Below the pieces are notes generated by a model. The model was not told where the DNA came from. It made no database searches and was given only the letters and a program-made list of their open reading frames with translations. A program made the position numbers and the translations under genes. Below are positions 2,493-12,169 of a stretch of DNA of 13,625 nt, one piece after another. Source of the stretch: a virus (taxonomy: Duplodnaviria > Heunggongvirae > Uroviricota > Caudoviricetes); IMG/VR virus record IMGVR_UViG_2681813234_000008, positions 1 through 13,625 of that record; one strand, written 5' to 3'. How positions within the stretch are numbered: the stretch's first letter is position 1; each line of letters opens with the position of its first letter.

Positions 2493-3320
2493 TTATTTAA
2501 CCTGGATAAATGGCGTATTGGCGCCGCTGGTCATGTATTGCGGCAGTGTGCCGTTCCATTTATTGATGGCTTCCAGTTCCATAACTCCAGGGTTCTGGCG
2601 CAGAGCTTCACCGCGTAAACGAATAGCATCGGCTTCGGCCTGGGCTTTTGTGCGAATCGCATCAGCCTGTCCGGCAGCTTCCGCGCGCAGCATGTTGGCT
2701 TCCGCTTCGCGCTGTTTTACTTCCTGCTCGCGTTGCAGGGTTTTCTGGTTTGCCGTGACTTTGGCATTAATGCTGTCGATAACGGTTGGTGGGTACTCCG
2801 GTTTACCTACATATGAGAGGCTCACTACCTGAATACCGATGGGTGTCATTTCTGCCTGAATGTCTTTAAGAGCAGCATCCAGCAGTTCAGACTTGCCGCC
2901 GTCGATAAATTTGTCGGTGGTCATTTTGCTGGCCAGTCGGTTGAGTGCGTCGGCGATCTTCTGGCGCAGGTCGGTGTCGGTAATGTCATCCACGCCTTTG
3001 CGGTAAGTCTGAAACACCGTGGTAACTTTGGATGGATCAACTTTGTAGGCCACGCCAATGTGATAGCCGATGGTTGTACCGTCACTCATCTGGAAACTGA
3101 ACGGTTCATCGTAGGTCTTCATTTGTTTGAAGGTGGGGAAGATATAAACTTCAGTATTCCAGCCAGTCCAGTAGCGACCAACACCGACCACCTCACCGAC
3201 GCCTTTGTCGTCGCCCAGTTTATTTACCTTGATGCCAACATTACCTGGTTCAACGCGATCGCAACCGACAAGGCCAATAGTCGGCAGAACAATGGCTAAA
3301 GCAAAAATAATTTTTTTCAT
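2493..3320 (-). CDS. SPFH/Band-7 (HflK/HflC-like) lipoprotein, predicted inner-membrane anchored
   Basis: N-terminal signal peptide with lipobox LVGC followed by Asp at +2 (inner-membrane retention rule). Core resembles the HflK/HflC pattern (VEPGNVGIKVNKLG ... IGIQVVSLSYVGKPEYPPTV), followed by an Ala/Gln/Glu-rich coiled-coil tail. SD AAGGA; ATGA overlap with the upstream small gene. Confidence 0.7.
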   Translation of the reverse strand: MKKIIFALAIVLPTIGLVGCDRVEPGNVGIKVNKLGDDKGVGEVVGVGRYWTGWNTEVYIFPTFKQMKTYDEPFSFQMSDGTTIGYHIGVAYKVDPSKVTTVFQTYRKGVDDITDTDLRQKIADALNRLASKMTTDKFIDGGKSELLDAALKDIQAEMTPIGIQVVSLSYVGKPEYPPTVIDSINAKVTANQKTLQREQEVKQREAEANMLRAEAAGQADAIRTKAQAEADAIRLRGEALRQNPGVMELEAINKWNGTLPQYMTSGANTPFIQVK

Positions 3321-3505
3321 CTTTTATCCTTAGTGAAAGAAAGACCCTTGTAAATGGCATAAATGCAGGGCGGGGTCAGAAACGCCAGTGCAAAGCCAGA
3401 AATAACTGCTATCGTATCCTTCATGGATATAAGGAACGGAACGAGTAATCCGTAAATGCATGCGATAATTGCCAGTAAAATTACTATTGTGAAATACAGT
3501 CTCAT
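3317..3505 (-). CDS. Small two-helix membrane protein (62 aa), coupled to the SPFH gene
   Basis: Two hydrophobic stretches (YFTIVILLAIIACIYGLLVPFLI and IAVISGFALAFLTPPCIYAIY). Its stop overlaps the SPFH start as ATGA. Weak SD. Confidence 0.55.
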   Translation of the reverse strand: MRLYFTIVILLAIIACIYGLLVPFLISMKDTIAVISGFALAFLTPPCIYAIYKGLSFTKDKR

Positions 3506-3528
3506 TGGTCTGTGGTATCCCGATATTT

Positions 3529-3636
3529 TTAACCGACTGACAGCGCAATAAAGAGAATAATGATTTCAGTTAGTGTCAGTACTGTGGCAAGGATTAAAAT
3601 CAGTTTTACTCTGTTTAATTCACGGTTGCTTTTCAT
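3529..3636 (-). CDS. Putative 35-aa single-helix membrane peptide, not in the ORF track
   Basis: Manual translation gives MKSNRELNRVKLILILATVLTLTEIIILFIALSVG: charged N-terminus then one hydrophobic helix. It lies 46 nt after the 193-aa gene stop and 24 nt before the 62-aa membrane gene. No clear SD. Confidence 0.25.
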   Translation of the reverse strand: MKSNRELNRVKLILILATVLTLTEIIILFIALSVG

Positions 3637-3681
3637 ATAAACGGTTAGTAAAAGATGGAAGAATTATATTCTTCTTAATAT

Positions 3682-4263
3682 TTAATGTGTCACTGGCGCT
3701 TCTGACATACCATGAGTATTCAGGTCGTTAATCATTTCATCCAGAAGGAGTTCAAGCCCTTCGCGCCCCATAGCAGAGAGAATGAAACCATTATCAGGAT
3801 CTGCGATGAGCATTTTTTGATAGAGAAACAGAACTCGCCCGATGCCTTCAGTTTCGCCATATTTTTCAATAAATCCCCATTCGACATGGTTTTGCAGGGC
3901 AATGCGAAGTGGTCCTGGGTATATACTTATGCAACCATGTTTCCCCTTGTAAATAACTGCGCGATCTGTCGTCCCGTTATCGTTAGGGATATCAATAGTG
4001 CCGTTCTTGTCTTCCTCTTCACTGATAAACTTCATCACATACAGCCAGCGCCACTGAGCAACCTTCAGATCGACTGAAAATCTTCCCAGCAATCCGGCAT
4101 CATCAGCTTCGGCAAGACATTGCATGATTCTTAAACCGTGCCAGTATGGATTATCGAATTCGCCATCATTAAGCCGCTGTACGGCCTCAATATAATCAAT
4201 GGTTTTATTACCAATTTTTATGCCATGTGGCGTTACTTCTGGTCGGAACTCTGAATGATTCAT
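3682..4263 (-). CDS. Hypothetical protein (193 aa), distal gene of a coupled pair
   Basis: Track ORF 3682..4338, trimmed to the ATG at 4263 (MNHSEFRPEV...), which overlaps the upstream gene stop as ATGA. Very AT-rich; no recognisable domain. Confidence 0.6.
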   Translation of the reverse strand: MNHSEFRPEVTPHGIKIGNKTIDYIEAVQRLNDGEFDNPYWHGLRIMQCLAEADDAGLLGRFSVDLKVAQWRWLYVMKFISEEEDKNGTIDIPNDNGTTDRAVIYKGKHGCISIYPGPLRIALQNHVEWGFIEKYGETEGIGRVLFLYQKMLIADPDNGFILSAMGREGLELLLDEMINDLNTHGMSEAPVTH

Positions 4264-4448
4264 AATGTTTGCTCCTTTGCTGGTGGAATAATCGTGTAGC
4301 CAGCTCTTTTTGCCATCCACAGAAATGTATCCATGCAACCAACGAATTCATTATCCAACAGATGTTTTGAGTAAATTACTTCACCATTTTCAATAGTTAG
4401 CAACACTCTTACTTTTTTATGTGTTATGTTTTGTTGTTTTTCTTTCAT
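4260..4448 (-). CDS. Hypothetical small protein (62 aa), proximal gene of a coupled pair
   Basis: Track ORF with GGGAGA SD about 8 nt upstream of the ATG; AT-rich codon usage. Stop overlaps the start of the 193-aa gene. Confidence 0.5.
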   Translation of the reverse strand: MKEKQQNITHKKVRVLLTIENGEVIYSKHLLDNEFVGCMDTFLWMAKRAGYTIIPPAKEQTL

Positions 4449-4644
4449 TTATTTATCTCCCATATGCTTTGCGCAAATACAGGTTGGCTATATGAAGATA
4501 AGAATCTCCATGTTGTGCAATGAGGCAGGCAGTTTTATACGATGCCTTATGTTTCAGGAAAGTCATAACATAATCTCCTGCGAATAAAGGTTGCAACAAT
4601 CCCCGGCGATAAAACCGTAATAAACATTCAGGGAATATTTATTG

Positions 4645-5010
4645 TTATTGCGCTAATTCTTTTTCGGCAGCAGATTTTGCATATTCACATGCAAAATTCA
4701 GAATTTCGCTGCCAAGTGTTTTTGTTTCGTGATTACTGGACATATGTAATACCTGTGTTGCATGCAATAAATGATAAACATTTACCGCAAATGAATCAGG
4801 CTCCAGACAAATGCCTTCATAATCATCTTGTTGTGAGGTTGTTTCTGTCATTGCTCCTGAAGTGCATGCGAGCCTGTTTTTGACAATTCTCTTTCCTCTA
4901 ATCACTATATCGGCAACATCTATTGCCTTTACAACCTCCGGGAGAAGGTCCGGGTTTGTATAATCAAAGTCATTAACATGGAGAACAGTTATGTTTTCGA
5001 ACTTTTTCAT
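4645..5010 (-). CDS. Hypothetical protein (121 aa)
   Basis: Track ORF with GAGGAA SD upstream of the ATG at 5010. It lies downstream of an HTH gene on the repressor strand. No recognisable domain. Confidence 0.55.
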   Translation of the reverse strand: MKKFENITVLHVNDFDYTNPDLLPEVVKAIDVADIVIRGKRIVKNRLACTSGAMTETTSQQDDYEGICLEPDSFAVNVYHLLHATQVLHMSSNHETKTLGSEILNFACEYAKSAAEKELAQ

Positions 5011-5138: not shown

Positions 5139-5657
5139 TCACCATTGGTATTGGTTCTTCCGTAGAAGAGCTTCGCGAGATAAGGAGCAAACTTGTTGAG
5201 ATGCGTCATGGTGTTGCTGCTCCTCACTTTTTGGTTGCTCCGGAGGAGTAACCTCACCAGTTAACAGCCACATCGGATCGCAGCCAAGAATATTTGCCAG
5301 TGGGATAAGCATACTGATAGTTGGTTCATACTTTCCGCTCTCCCACTGGATGATAATTTCTTCATCGAGATCGAGCAGCCTGGCGAGTTCGGCGGTTGTT
5401 AAGCCGCAAGCTTCGCGTTGAGTGCGAAGGCGGGAACTAATAGTCACCATAGCAAGGCGACGGCAAGATTTAGTGCGCTCTTGCCTTCTTTGTGAAAAAT
5501 CTTCTTGTGCAAGAGAAGATGCCAGTTCAGCTGAAATTAGAAGTAATGAATATGAAACATCTCGCTCTTTCTCGGTACCTGAAGACAACAAGCAGGCTGC
5601 GTTAAGGGATGCAGAAAGCTTGTTGATGTCATCTATAGCGTCAATAAAATCGATCAT
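5139..5657 (-). CDS. XRE-family helix-turn-helix protein (172 aa) with extra N-terminal region
   Basis: Central HTH_3-like segment (GLTTAELARLLDLDEEIIIQWESGKYEPTISMLIPLANILGCDPMWLLTGE). GGAG lies upstream of the ATG at 5657; the alternative start at M70 (5450) lacks an SD. Confidence 0.6.
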   Translation of the reverse strand: MIDFIDAIDDINKLSASLNAACLLSSGTEKERDVSYSLLLISAELASSLAQEDFSQRRQERTKSCRRLAMVTISSRLRTQREACGLTTAELARLLDLDEEIIIQWESGKYEPTISMLIPLANILGCDPMWLLTGEVTPPEQPKSEEQQHHDASQQVCSLSREALLRKNQYQW

Positions 5658-5697
5658 TTCTCAAAGCTCCAATAATGCGCTGTGAGGCAATGATTCA

Positions 5698-5728
5698 TCA
5701 ATTATAATTGATAGTCAAGTATGATTTA
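5698..5728. promoter_or_regulatory. Operator-like 14-bp perfect palindrome TCAATTATAATTGA (5698-5711) plus adjacent half-site TCAAGTA (5715-5721)
   Basis: Palindrome read directly from the sequence. It sits between the repressor stop and the start of the 172-aa HTH gene and matches the site family in the repressor/cro intergenic region. Confidence 0.45.
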
Positions 5729-6211
5729 GTCTTTTTGATTGAGTTTTTGCGTGATTAGCAAGATGTTTTTTGAGTGTTCTTCCAGAAGATTTTTTGCAAA
5801 ATCCAACACCTTTACCCTCTCTTTTGTGGGTAAATTCGCAAATATTTCAAATAAATAGCTTGTATCCTCAATGATTGTTGGATCTATAGATTCAATAATA
5901 CCTCGTATCAGTTTGTTGCTCATTGAATCAAAAAGAGTTTCTCCATTCTCCCGGGTAAGTGTGTACTTAGGTTTTTCTGTGTTTCCATTTAAAAGCCACT
6001 GTACGTCGCACTGTAAGAGTTCTGATAATTTCAATAGCTTATCGCTAGTTATGCTTGTCTTTCCTTTCTCCCACAAAGATACAGCAGCCATTGATACCCC
6101 CATTGCTTGTGCCAGCTTTAATTGACTTAAACCAAGTTCTTTTCTGCGTGACAGAATCCTGTGCCCCATTGAGAGTGGGGAAGACTGACATGACTTTAGT
6201 TTTGTATCCAT
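5726..6211 (-). CDS. Prophage repressor, XRE-family HTH, no recognisable S24 peptidase domain (CI analog)
   Basis: N-terminal HTH (LGLSQLKLAQAMGVSMAAVSLWEKGKTSITSDKLLKLSELLQCDVQWLLNG). Transcribed divergently from the Cro-like gene. Track ORF trimmed to the ATG at 6211, which has a GAGGG SD. The C-terminal 90 aa show no Ser/Lys autopeptidase motif. Confidence 0.7.
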   Translation of the reverse strand: MDTKLKSCQSSPLSMGHRILSRRKELGLSQLKLAQAMGVSMAAVSLWEKGKTSITSDKLLKLSELLQCDVQWLLNGNTEKPKYTLTRENGETLFDSMSNKLIRGIIESIDPTIIEDTSYLFEIFANLPTKERVKVLDFAKNLLEEHSKNILLITQKLNQKD

Positions 6212-6291
6212 ATTGCCCTCAAGTATACTTGATAGTAAGATTGTGTTGTAATTCCTGTTGCTAAGCTTAATCAATTAATGTTGAGGTCTCA
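6212..6291. promoter_or_regulatory. Divergent immunity promoter/operator region with two 14-bp sites, TCAAGTATACTTGA (6219-6232) and TCAATTAATGTTGA (6271-6284)
   Basis: The first site is a perfect palindrome and the second is a 12/14 match to the 5698 palindrome. Each abuts the SD of the gene on its side. -10-like hexamers (TATACT, TAAGAT) are present, but promoters are not mapped. Confidence 0.5.
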
Positions 6292-6531
6292 ATGATAAAG
6301 ATTAGTGCAATTAAGTTTTATGGTTCGCAAAGGGCGATTGCTCAATCACTGGGGATTAGCGAGCAAGCTGTTTCTCAATGGCCAGAACTCATTCCTAAAG
6401 GTGCAGCTCTGGAGCTTGAGAAACTCACTGATGGCGCTTTGAAGTGCGATCTGAACCTGTACAAGAACCGCTCGCGCAAAAACAAGCGTGAATTGCACCC
6501 AAGCTTAGCGCACACGGGGGAGGAGAAGTGA
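6292..6531 (+). CDS. Cro/YdaS-like small DNA-binding regulator
   Basis: 79-aa ORF with the YdaS/Cro-type motif GSQRAIAQSLGISEQAVSQW ... PKGAALELEKLTDGALKCD. Divergent from the repressor; GAGG SD. Confidence 0.7.
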   Translation: MIKISAIKFYGSQRAIAQSLGISEQAVSQWPELIPKGAALELEKLTDGALKCDLNLYKNRSRKNKRELHPSLAHTGEEK

Positions 6532-7279: not shown

Positions 7280-8932
7280 ATGGAGCTGACGATCACGCCG
7301 AATTTTGCACAGGAACGAGCGTTAAACATGTTGCGTCGTGACTGGAAGGCAAATGACACCTTCATGGTGTATTCGCCAACTGGTAGCGGTAAAACCGGTT
7401 TGGCCGCTTTCATCGTTGCAGGGTTTGTCAGCCGTGGTATGCGCGTTCTGTTTTGTGCACCGTACACTATCCTGATTGGTCAGACGGCTAATCGCTTCGT
7501 GGAGTACGGGTTACCGGAGGATGAAATCGGTTATATCTGGGCGGATCACCCGAACTACGATCCGGACCGGAAAATTCAGATTGCCAGCGCCGACACGCTT
7601 ATTCGTCGTGTTTTTCCTGAAAATATTGATCTGCTGATTATCGACGAAGCACACCTGCGTAAAAAACGCATCCTGAAGGATATCGAACGTCTGCGCGGCA
7701 AAGGCGTAAAGGTGATTGGCCTGTCGGGTACTCCGTTTTCCCCGTTCCTGGGCAAATACTATGACCGACTAATTAAACCGACCACCATCGGCGAGTTAAT
7801 CCAGCGTGGCGATCTGAGTAAATACGAATTTTATGCGCCAACAAAGCCGGATCTGAAAGGCGTAAAAACCAAGTCTTCACTTGAGTACGGCAACGATTAT
7901 AACGAAGCTCAACTGGCTGAAATCATGTGCGGCTCTACGCTGGTGGGCGACATCGTACAGAACTGGCTGGAGAATGGCCGGGATCTGCCGACAATCGCGT
8001 TCTGCGTCAACGTAGCCCATGCTAATTTTCTGACAATCCAGTTTAACCAGGCTGGCATTAACGCTGAGGTCATGACCGCCAACACGCCAGTGGATGAGCG
8101 TCAGACCATCATTCACCGCTTTGAAACTGGTGCAACGAAAATCATCGTTAGTGTGGGCGTTCTGGTGGCTGGCTTCGATAGTGACGTTCGTTGCATCATC
8201 TACGCCAGGCCAACAAAAAGTGAAATTCGCTGGCTGCAGGCGATTGGGCGCGGCCTGCGCACAGCGCCGGGTAAAGAATCTTGTCTCATATTCGATCACA
8301 GTGGCACCGTACACCGCCTCGGTTACCCGGATTCTATCGAGTATGACGATCTCCCCGGTAAGTCTGATGGCATGGAGGAAAGTGCGCGCCGTGCAGCTGA
8401 GGAGCGGGCCGAAAAACTCCCCCATGAATGTTCTCAATGCCACTACATGAAACCCGCTGGTGTCTACGTCTGCCCGAAATGCGGGCATAAGCCGTTGGGT
8501 GGTGAGGATGTCGATACCGATACCGGGCGCAAACTTAAAAAGCTGGGTAAAAATCAGCATCTATCGACAAAGGCAGAGAAACAGGCTTGGTGGAGCCAGA
8601 TCAAATTTTATCAGCGCCAGCGCGTATCGCAGGGGAAAAAGCCCGTTAGTGATGGCTGGTGCGCTCACATTTTCCGGGAGAAGTTCGGCGAATGGCCGGA
8701 TAACCTGAGTGATTTCCCGATGGAAATTACCCCGGAGGTAAGCAACTACATCAGATACAAACTCATCAGGTTTGCGAAAGGGCAAAAACGCCCCCCTCAA
8801 CCACAGACAGAATCTCATCATGCAGGCGCATTGCCGCTAGGTTGTGCCGCAATTTACGAGCTCCCTGAGAACTGCCCGACTAAGGCAATTATCAACGCCA
8901 AACAGCAACTTCAGAAAAATGTAGTGGTGTGA
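7280..8932 (+). CDS. Superfamily-2 DEAD/DEAH-type helicase with C-terminal zinc ribbon (replication module)
   Basis: Walker A SPTGSGKTG, motif II LIIDEAH, motif III LSGTP, motif VI QAIGRGLR, and a C-terminal CSQCHYMKPAGVYVCPKCGH. GGAG SD upstream of the ATG. Confidence 0.85.
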   Translation: MELTITPNFAQERALNMLRRDWKANDTFMVYSPTGSGKTGLAAFIVAGFVSRGMRVLFCAPYTILIGQTANRFVEYGLPEDEIGYIWADHPNYDPDRKIQIASADTLIRRVFPENIDLLIIDEAHLRKKRILKDIERLRGKGVKVIGLSGTPFSPFLGKYYDRLIKPTTIGELIQRGDLSKYEFYAPTKPDLKGVKTKSSLEYGNDYNEAQLAEIMCGSTLVGDIVQNWLENGRDLPTIAFCVNVAHANFLTIQFNQAGINAEVMTANTPVDERQTIIHRFETGATKIIVSVGVLVAGFDSDVRCIIYARPTKSEIRWLQAIGRGLRTAPGKESCLIFDHSGTVHRLGYPDSIEYDDLPGKSDGMEESARRAAEERAEKLPHECSQCHYMKPAGVYVCPKCGHKPLGGEDVDTDTGRKLKKLGKNQHLSTKAEKQAWWSQIKFYQRQRVSQGKKPVSDGWCAHIFREKFGEWPDNLSDFPMEITPEVSNYIRYKLIRFAKGQKRPPQPQTESHHAGALPLGCAAIYELPENCPTKAIINAKQQLQKNVVV

Positions 8933-11900: not shown

Positions 11901-11930
11901 TTGACCAGACACATTGTCCGGGGCTATATT
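11901..11930 (+). promoter_or_regulatory. Candidate late promoter pR' (-35 TTGACC, 18-bp spacer, -10 TATATT)
   Basis: Near-consensus sigma-70 hexamers 5 nt after the Q stop, followed by short hairpins and an intrinsic terminator about 75 nt downstream. Confidence 0.45.
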
Positions 11931-11990
11931 CCTCACGCGCCAGCAAAATCTGGCGTCGGGATTGGCGTCCCGGATGAAAAAGGCGACAAC

Positions 11991-12012
11991 AGACGCGCCA
12001 GCGTCTTTTTTG
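11991..12012 (+). terminator. Intrinsic terminator (tR'-like)
   Basis: Stem AGACGC / GCGTCT with loop GCCA, followed by TTTTTT. Confidence 0.5.
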
Positions 12013-12169
12013 TTGTCGTTTGCACTGTCACATCTCAATGGTGGGCTGTGTGGGGGCGGAGCGATCCGCGCCGGTTCCTTTTTCCCGGTTACGCCAACCC
12101 TGCACAGTTCACCACCATACTGATTGGCGTCAGCAGTGGTGATGATTCACATAGAAAAAGGATCATCCT

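Follow-up and report, generated by a model that had tools for sequence, protein, structure and literature searches.

Introduction

Several accessory proteins of the lambda pL operon inhibit host proteins, and Ral, Gam, Kil and cIII are examples of the products of that operon. [quoted passage not shown] Lambda and the Shiga-toxin-converting (Stx) phages also carry the exo-xis genes (orf60a, orf61, orf63, orf73, ea22 and ea8.5), small conserved genes of the leftward operon between the recombination/immunity region and xis. Three studies describe the exo-xis genes as conserved, mostly without assigned function, expressed very early and able to affect lysogenisation and induction (PMC3824215, PMC4195576, PMC8614690).

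We analysed a stretch of viral DNA of 13,625 nt (IMG/VR record IMGVR_UViG_2681813234_000008), called the window below. It covers the left arm, together with the immunity region, of a lambdoid prophage of the phiP27-like, Shiga-toxin type. Two minus-strand genes of this arm, at 4260-4448 and 3682-4263, encode proteins of 62 and 193 aa and correspond to phiP27 L07 (P27p07) and L06 (P27p06), with protein identities of 98% and 96%. Bases 3300-4800 are 98.3% identical to phiP27 at the DNA level. The initial annotation saw in the pair a strong candidate for an undescribed TA, abortive-infection or anti-defence system.

The locus resembles both kinds of described system in part. Like type II TA modules, it translationally couples a small gene to a larger one downstream, and members of the small family in sister phages overlap a ParE_like gene. 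Unlike those modules, the pair has no toxin or antitoxin domain, no detected DNA-binding antitoxin fold and no autoregulated promoter, and its genes are separable and do not co-evolve. Its position in the leftward operon is like that of the exo-xis genes, but the proteins are unrelated to those of the exo-xis region, and phiP27-type phages have no Red genes in this arm. L07 and L06 are probably tightly packed delayed-early genes of the leftward operon, belonging to independent families, rather than a TA or defence pair.

Results

From upstream to downstream the arm runs cI-like repressor, pL/oL, L10, L08, a 37-aa gene, L07, L06, a membrane and SPFH gene module, DUF5406, DUF4222, xis and int, the last four following the SPFH gene in the leftward order. 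The features around the pair are as follows.

5726-6274, minus strand: cI-like repressor gene (ORF map and annotation of near-identical prophages)
5690-5728, minus strand: putative pL/oL, two operator-like palindromes (TCAANTATANTTGA) over a sigma-70-like leftward promoter
5139-5657, minus strand: L10, gene for an HTH protein (ORF map and annotation of near-identical prophages)
4645-5010, minus strand: L08 gene (ORF map and annotation of near-identical prophages)
4453-4566, minus strand: gene for a 37-aa basic protein, conserved, unannotated in phiP27
4260-4448, minus strand: 62-aa gene (L07) with an ATG start, phrog_340
4260-4263, minus strand: ATGA shared by the stop of the 62-aa gene and the start of the 193-aa gene (ORF coordinates)
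3682-4263, minus strand: 193-aa gene (L06) with an ATG start, phrog_1515
3317-3505, minus strand: gene for a 62-aa membrane protein, phrog_1130 (ORF map)
2493-3320, minus strand: gene for a 275-aa SPFH/Band-7 protein (Pfam E 5.5e-31)

The pair thus shares its strand with xis-int and falls in the interval from the immunity region to these genes, downstream of a putative repressor-controlled promoter, which is the setting of pL-operon accessory genes. Its initial placement in the accessory part of the prophage was correct. The integrase of this P27-like prophage is of the yecE-side type.

The SPFH gene, labelled variously 'serine protease' or 'lipoprotein' in annotations, is itself ATGA-coupled to the gene for the 62-aa membrane protein. 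In the window this module follows the 193-aa gene, in Klebsiella phage P18-100 it precedes that gene, and phage ASU11 has no such module. Because its position and presence differ between these genomes, it behaves like a mobile cassette.

The stop-to-start overlap of the 62-aa and 193-aa genes is real. Shine-Dalgarno-like sites precede both starts, GGGAG 8 nt upstream of the 62-aa gene and AAGGAG 9 nt upstream of the 193-aa ATG. RefSeq/PGAP makes identical CDS calls for both genes in a 98.7%-identical prophage, and M1 of the 193-aa protein is invariant in 22 homologues. The phiP27 annotation differs, giving longer starts (67 and 212 aa) that overlap by 61 nt; the conserved M1 and the Shine-Dalgarno sites favour the shorter ones. 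The overlap is not distinctive in this window, where four-base overlaps are common: the identical overlap recurs at three further junctions (3317-3320, 6528-6531 and 8929-8932), and one more junction overlaps by 1 nt.

Base composition sets the pair apart less than had been thought. A block of roughly 27-35% GC beside genes near 53% was an overstatement, as GC is 41.6% over 3682-4448 (44.0% in the 193-aa gene and 33.9% in the 62-aa gene), the flanks are at about 50-51%, and only local 100-nt windows drop to 24%.

The local unit is one of three genes. Both members of the proposed pair are real genes, but the conserved 37-aa gene, which stops 4 nt upstream of the 62-aa gene, had been overlooked. 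It is unannotated in phiP27 and annotated in PhiR49_2 and Stx1_499, and in one database entry, P0088, its product is joined in frame to the small protein. All three genes are under purifying selection, strongly so for the 37-aa gene, with dN/dS of 0.07-0.23 for the 37-aa gene, 0.15-0.34 for the 62-aa gene and 0.09-0.26 for the 193-aa gene, ranges that leave out near-identical pairs with too few substitutions for an estimate.

The putative pL consists of TTGACT and AATCAT with a 17-nt spacer. Its immediate upstream neighbour is the cI-like gene, and L10, L08, the 37-aa gene, L07 and L06 all follow it. Palindromes of the TCAANTATANTTGA type, with up to two mismatches, occur four times in the window against 0.7 expected by chance; all four are at 5698-5728 and 6219-6284, and none is found elsewhere in the window. 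Two are in the cI-cro region and the other two overlap the leftward promoter-like site. Judged by consensus matches only, they look like oR and oL/pL. Around the pair itself no promoter or terminator signal rose above chance, and an Rfam scan found no RNA element in that region. With an operator-flanked leftward promoter upstream of it, the pair should be repressed in the lysogen. It most likely belongs to a repressor-controlled pL operon that would be silent in the lysogen, while its expression there from an unrecognised internal promoter is possible.

Both proteins match PHROG families over their full length, the 62-aa protein phrog_340 (E 3.2e-24, residues 2-61) and the 193-aa protein phrog_1515 (E 4.9e-90, residues 1-193). 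Both families are labelled as of unknown function, and all public records name both proteins hypothetical. Pfam and NCBIfam contain no domain for either protein, and with PADLOC-DB 2.0 neither they nor six proteins encoded nearby had a match at E<=1. Searches of the PDB by sequence and by profile found no relative of either protein, and comparison of the predicted models with PDB folds found no structural relative. The initial view of a pair of unknown function without a recognisable motif thus held up under remote-homology and structure searches, which led only to the two PHROGs without an assigned function. No paper on either family came up in literature searches that used accessions and PHROG or domain ids. 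The hhalign comparison of the 62-aa protein with the large family found no relationship between them.

AlphaFold modelled both proteins with confidence (pLDDT 89.4 and pTM 0.84 for the 193-aa protein, pLDDT 86 for the 62-aa protein). In the predictions the small protein has a beta-hairpin at residues 14-30 and then a single helix at 39-48, and the large one has a mixed alpha/beta fold without a known relative. The 193-aa protein is soluble and acidic, with a pI of 4.9 and a net charge of -12, and this acidity holds across its family (pI 4.7-4.9, charge -12 to -14). An exhaustive HMMER search put the large family at 132 clusters, and nearly all of these are standalone proteins, 190-220 aa long, that contain no Pfam domain. 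A profile search of the small family gave 631 proteins, which makes it the larger of the two. phrog_1515 also takes in distant homologues of the 193-aa protein. Among 60 diverse sequences of the large family the near-invariant positions are limited to G34, D37, R72, W73, R120, E128, Y148, M151, G166 and His193. The last residue, encoded at 3682-3687 of the window, is His in at least 90% of these 60 members, typically in a ...P-x-x-H ending; conservation of this kind at a C-terminus is unusual.

Three labels found in databases were rejected. Weak precomputed DUF5375 (PF17345) labels gave no consistent signal, as 2 of 60 members match (E 0.16). Pfam failed to reproduce the UniRef label 'DUF905' on one small-family cluster. 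No search supported the name '2-polyprenylphenol hydrolase/hydroxylase related flavodoxin oxidoreductase' given to large homologues in Klebsiella phages, which is borne by records MF695815, MK416014, MN166823, MK422455, MK433579 and MK416019.

Both families are spread through enterobacterial temperate phages, and phrog_1515 extends to integrative elements and P4-like satellites. Most records from a plasmid search were non-mobilizable and about 40 kb long; these are probably phage genomes entered as plasmids.

We compared loci from phage records, IMG/VR and metagenome assemblies, placing both families by HMMs. In the E. coli clade, defined by 66-97% identity to the 193-aa protein, the small gene directly precedes the large gene in 78 of 80 loci. 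Among 85 junctions in this clade, 55 have the ATGA overlap and 29 a 5-nt spacer. Adjacency and overlap are limited to this lineage. The Klebsiella/CharmingMan clade has both genes in 78 of 80 loci, never adjacent and always with two to four genes between them, at a distance of about 0.6 or 1.7 kb. The order there is phrog_1737 (gsn), small gene, ParE_like gene, phrog_1886 and large gene in about 76 of the 80 loci, and in 24 loci the membrane and SPFH module is additionally inserted.

In the Klebsiella clade, where the genes are unlinked, the divergence of the small proteins is uncorrelated with that of the large ones (Spearman -0.01), and large proteins that are 100% identical have small partners that share only 32-38% identity. 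The corresponding correlation of 0.73 in the E. coli clade comes from linkage alone. Each gene is also found by itself. Phage AsXd-1, locus L166 and the P4-like loci L199, L206 and L207 have the large gene but not the small one, and Fels-1 and 7 of 25 loci seeded with the small protein have the small gene but not the large one. In AsXd-1 the core of the small gene is deleted, the upstream phrog_1737 protein bears its C-terminal tail, and the ParE-like gene is kept. The pair is therefore not a fixed unit, and its ATGA overlap is lineage-specific. The two families do meet in one operon in four different architectures, so their products could still interact physically, and this recurrent co-occurrence may reflect a looser functional link.

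Sister phages have a 73-aa ParE_like (PF24732) gene that shares 29 nt with the 3' end of the small gene, at these positions.

L004, 3766-3987: ParE_like gene (PF24732)
L007, 1870-2091: ParE_like gene (PF24732)
L013, 2361-2582: ParE_like gene (PF24732)

This link is not obligatory, as L166 and AsXd-1 have ParE-like genes without the small gene.

A second family is related to the 193-aa protein. The 120-aa phrog_1737 proteins ('RKTGSN') are homologous to its residues 65-184 (hhalign 96.9%, E 1.7e-10), and PHROG assignment places both branches of phrog_1737 in one family.

L007, 1286-1651: phrog_1737 protein, matching window stretch 3712-4071
L208, 3633-4001: phrog_1737 protein, matching window stretch 3712-4071

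These proteins differ from the 193-aa protein in having neither its N-terminal 64 residues nor its conserved C-terminal His. The phrog_1737 gene often precedes the small gene in other phages and is in the same operon as the 193-aa family in most Klebsiella-clade and primase-linked loci. Many operons thus hold a full-length and a half-length paralogue, and this paralogy within one operon is previously unrecorded. The present window differs in having no phrog_1737, and by hhalign L08 is unrelated to that family.

In distant elements the large gene lies directly upstream of a primase-helicase gene (D5_N/Toprim or DUF927), sometimes overlapping it, and also near SSB, ORF6N antirepressors, Ash and AlpA. 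phrog_1737 too is found immediately upstream of a primase-helicase gene in other elements. In locus L204 (222-626) a 134-aa fusion joins a DnaG-type primase zinc ribbon (residues 1-64) to a C-terminal phrog_340 domain (residues 70-131; E 1.4e-17). The fusion recurs in 10 IMG/VR contigs (L211-L220), from one moderately diverse lineage, and in 9 of these 10 it is followed, about 2 kb further on, by phrog_1737 and the large gene in that order.

Discussion

L07 and L06 are probably two of a chain of packed delayed-early genes in a P27-like leftward operon. Each behaves as an independently shuffled, mosaic and non-essential module, able to exist alone, and one lineage has packed the two tightly together with the 37-aa gene. 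The ATGA overlap would then reflect operon compaction and translational coupling within one sub-lineage rather than mark a two-component system.

The description of the pair as a TA, abortive-infection or anti-defence system, and as a strong candidate for an undescribed one, does not agree with genes that behave as independently shuffled early-operon modules. In a type II-like TA or abortive-infection pair the 62-aa protein would act as a short-lived antidote, produced in fixed ratio to a toxin of 193 aa, stabilising the prophage or killing infected cells. The small-then-large order with its ATGA overlap and the adjacency in 78 of 80 E. coli-clade loci would suit such a pair, and the overlap of the small family with a bona fide ParE_like gene hints at antitoxin-like behaviour. 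However, ParE-like genes also occur without the small gene, and Pfam, NCBIfam and PADLOC gave no toxin or antitoxin domain. Neither a recognised toxin fold (RelE/ParE, MazF/CcdB, PIN, HipA, Fic/Doc, zeta, GNAT or others) nor a DNA-binding antitoxin domain (RHH, HTH, AbrB or Phd/YefM) with a toxin-binding tail was found. Obligate adjacency, co-inheritance and co-evolution are contradicted by the Klebsiella gaps, by the lack of correlation in that clade and by the solo occurrences, which include a large gene without its supposed antidote in P4-like elements and in the sequenced, apparently intact AsXd-1 genome. No promoter signal stands out from chance at the pair, only 4 nt separate it from the gene before it, and it lies inside what seems to be a repressor-controlled early operon, whose expected silence in the lysogen is a poor fit to a defence or addiction role. 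We regard the TA reading as very improbable.

An early role against the host is easier to reconcile with the position of the pair under the putative oL/pL, and other lambda pL accessory proteins offer a precedent. The acidic 193-aa protein, with or without the 62-aa protein, would block a host immune or housekeeping protein early. A soluble acidic family, encoded by a non-essential, mosaic gene in both phages and satellites, is consistent with this, and the few invariant polar residues across so deep a family speak against a classical enzyme. Against it, comparisons with known anti-defence proteins in Pfam, PHROG and the PDB were all negative, and the dN/dS of the large gene does not point to an arms race. 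The 193-aa protein is also only moderately acidic, far less so than DNA mimics like Ocr or ArdA. Anti-defence or host takeover is, on balance, unlikely. Less probable again is that the two proteins modulate the lysis-lysogeny decision as exo-xis genes do, shifting the efficiency of lysogenisation and induction. The pair matches those genes in its relative position in the leftward operon, from immunity region to xis-int, and ea22 and eaA-type genes directly follow the cassette in phage PhiR49_2; the properties described for exo-xis genes in parts of the lambda and Stx phage literature (PMC3824215, PMC4195576, PMC8614690) point the same way. Yet neither protein has homology to exo-xis proteins, which in PhiR49_2 are encoded by separate genes, and phrog_1515 also lies beside primase genes in satellites that lack a lambda-type decision circuit.

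If L07 and L06 are packed delayed-early genes, the next question is what their products do. Tentatively, and with more doubt than confidence, both may be small protein-binding accessory factors that act early after derepression or infection and are tied to the start of DNA replication of the element. The link to replication is drawn by association, from the fusion of phrog_340 to a primase zinc ribbon and the location of phrog_1515 and phrog_1737 beside primase-helicase and SSB genes. The replication genes of this phage are on the other arm and not beside the pair, so the primase synteny in satellites may merely reflect the single early operon there. The acidity of the 193-aa protein and the accessory position of its gene would also fit an anti-defence or host-takeover role.

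A broader and rather doubtful proposal is that phrog_340, phrog_1515 and phrog_1737 form an unrecognised, loosely linked early set with new folds, shared by enterobacterial temperate phages and satellites. Such a set might act at the primase-helicase interface, where it could, for instance, recruit or disable DnaG/DnaB of the host or a primase encoded by the element, or it might be a new anti-defence module. The 62-aa/193-aa pair would then be the most compact form of the set.

The two genes are of a known kind, the accessory ORFans found in early operons of lambdoid phages, and have been listed as hypothetical ever since the phiP27 genome; this analysis produced no evidence for a novel mechanism. 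In practical terms the outcome is negative for a new TA or defence system. Sharper leads are the cassette of 37-, 62- and 193-aa genes, the phrog_1737 paralogy, the primase zinc-ribbon fusion and the primase-helicase synteny. Carriers include many Shiga-toxin-converting and related E. coli prophages, those of O157:H7 among them, and Klebsiella prophages; the exact sequences of the two genes are on up to 1000 or more contigs. If the proteins modulate early replication, takeover or immunity, they would affect prophage induction, and in Stx phages such modulation could also affect toxin output.

The right arm of the window has its own RNA elements. Rfam matches above the gathering score cover 11924-12119 on the plus strand, and mark a P1/P7-type antisense immunity or anti-Q style module.

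11924-11976, plus strand: a1/b1 targets of the C4 antisense RNA (Rfam)
11937-12011, plus strand: isrK Hfq-binding sRNA (Rfam)
12034-12119, plus strand: C4 antisense RNA (Rfam)
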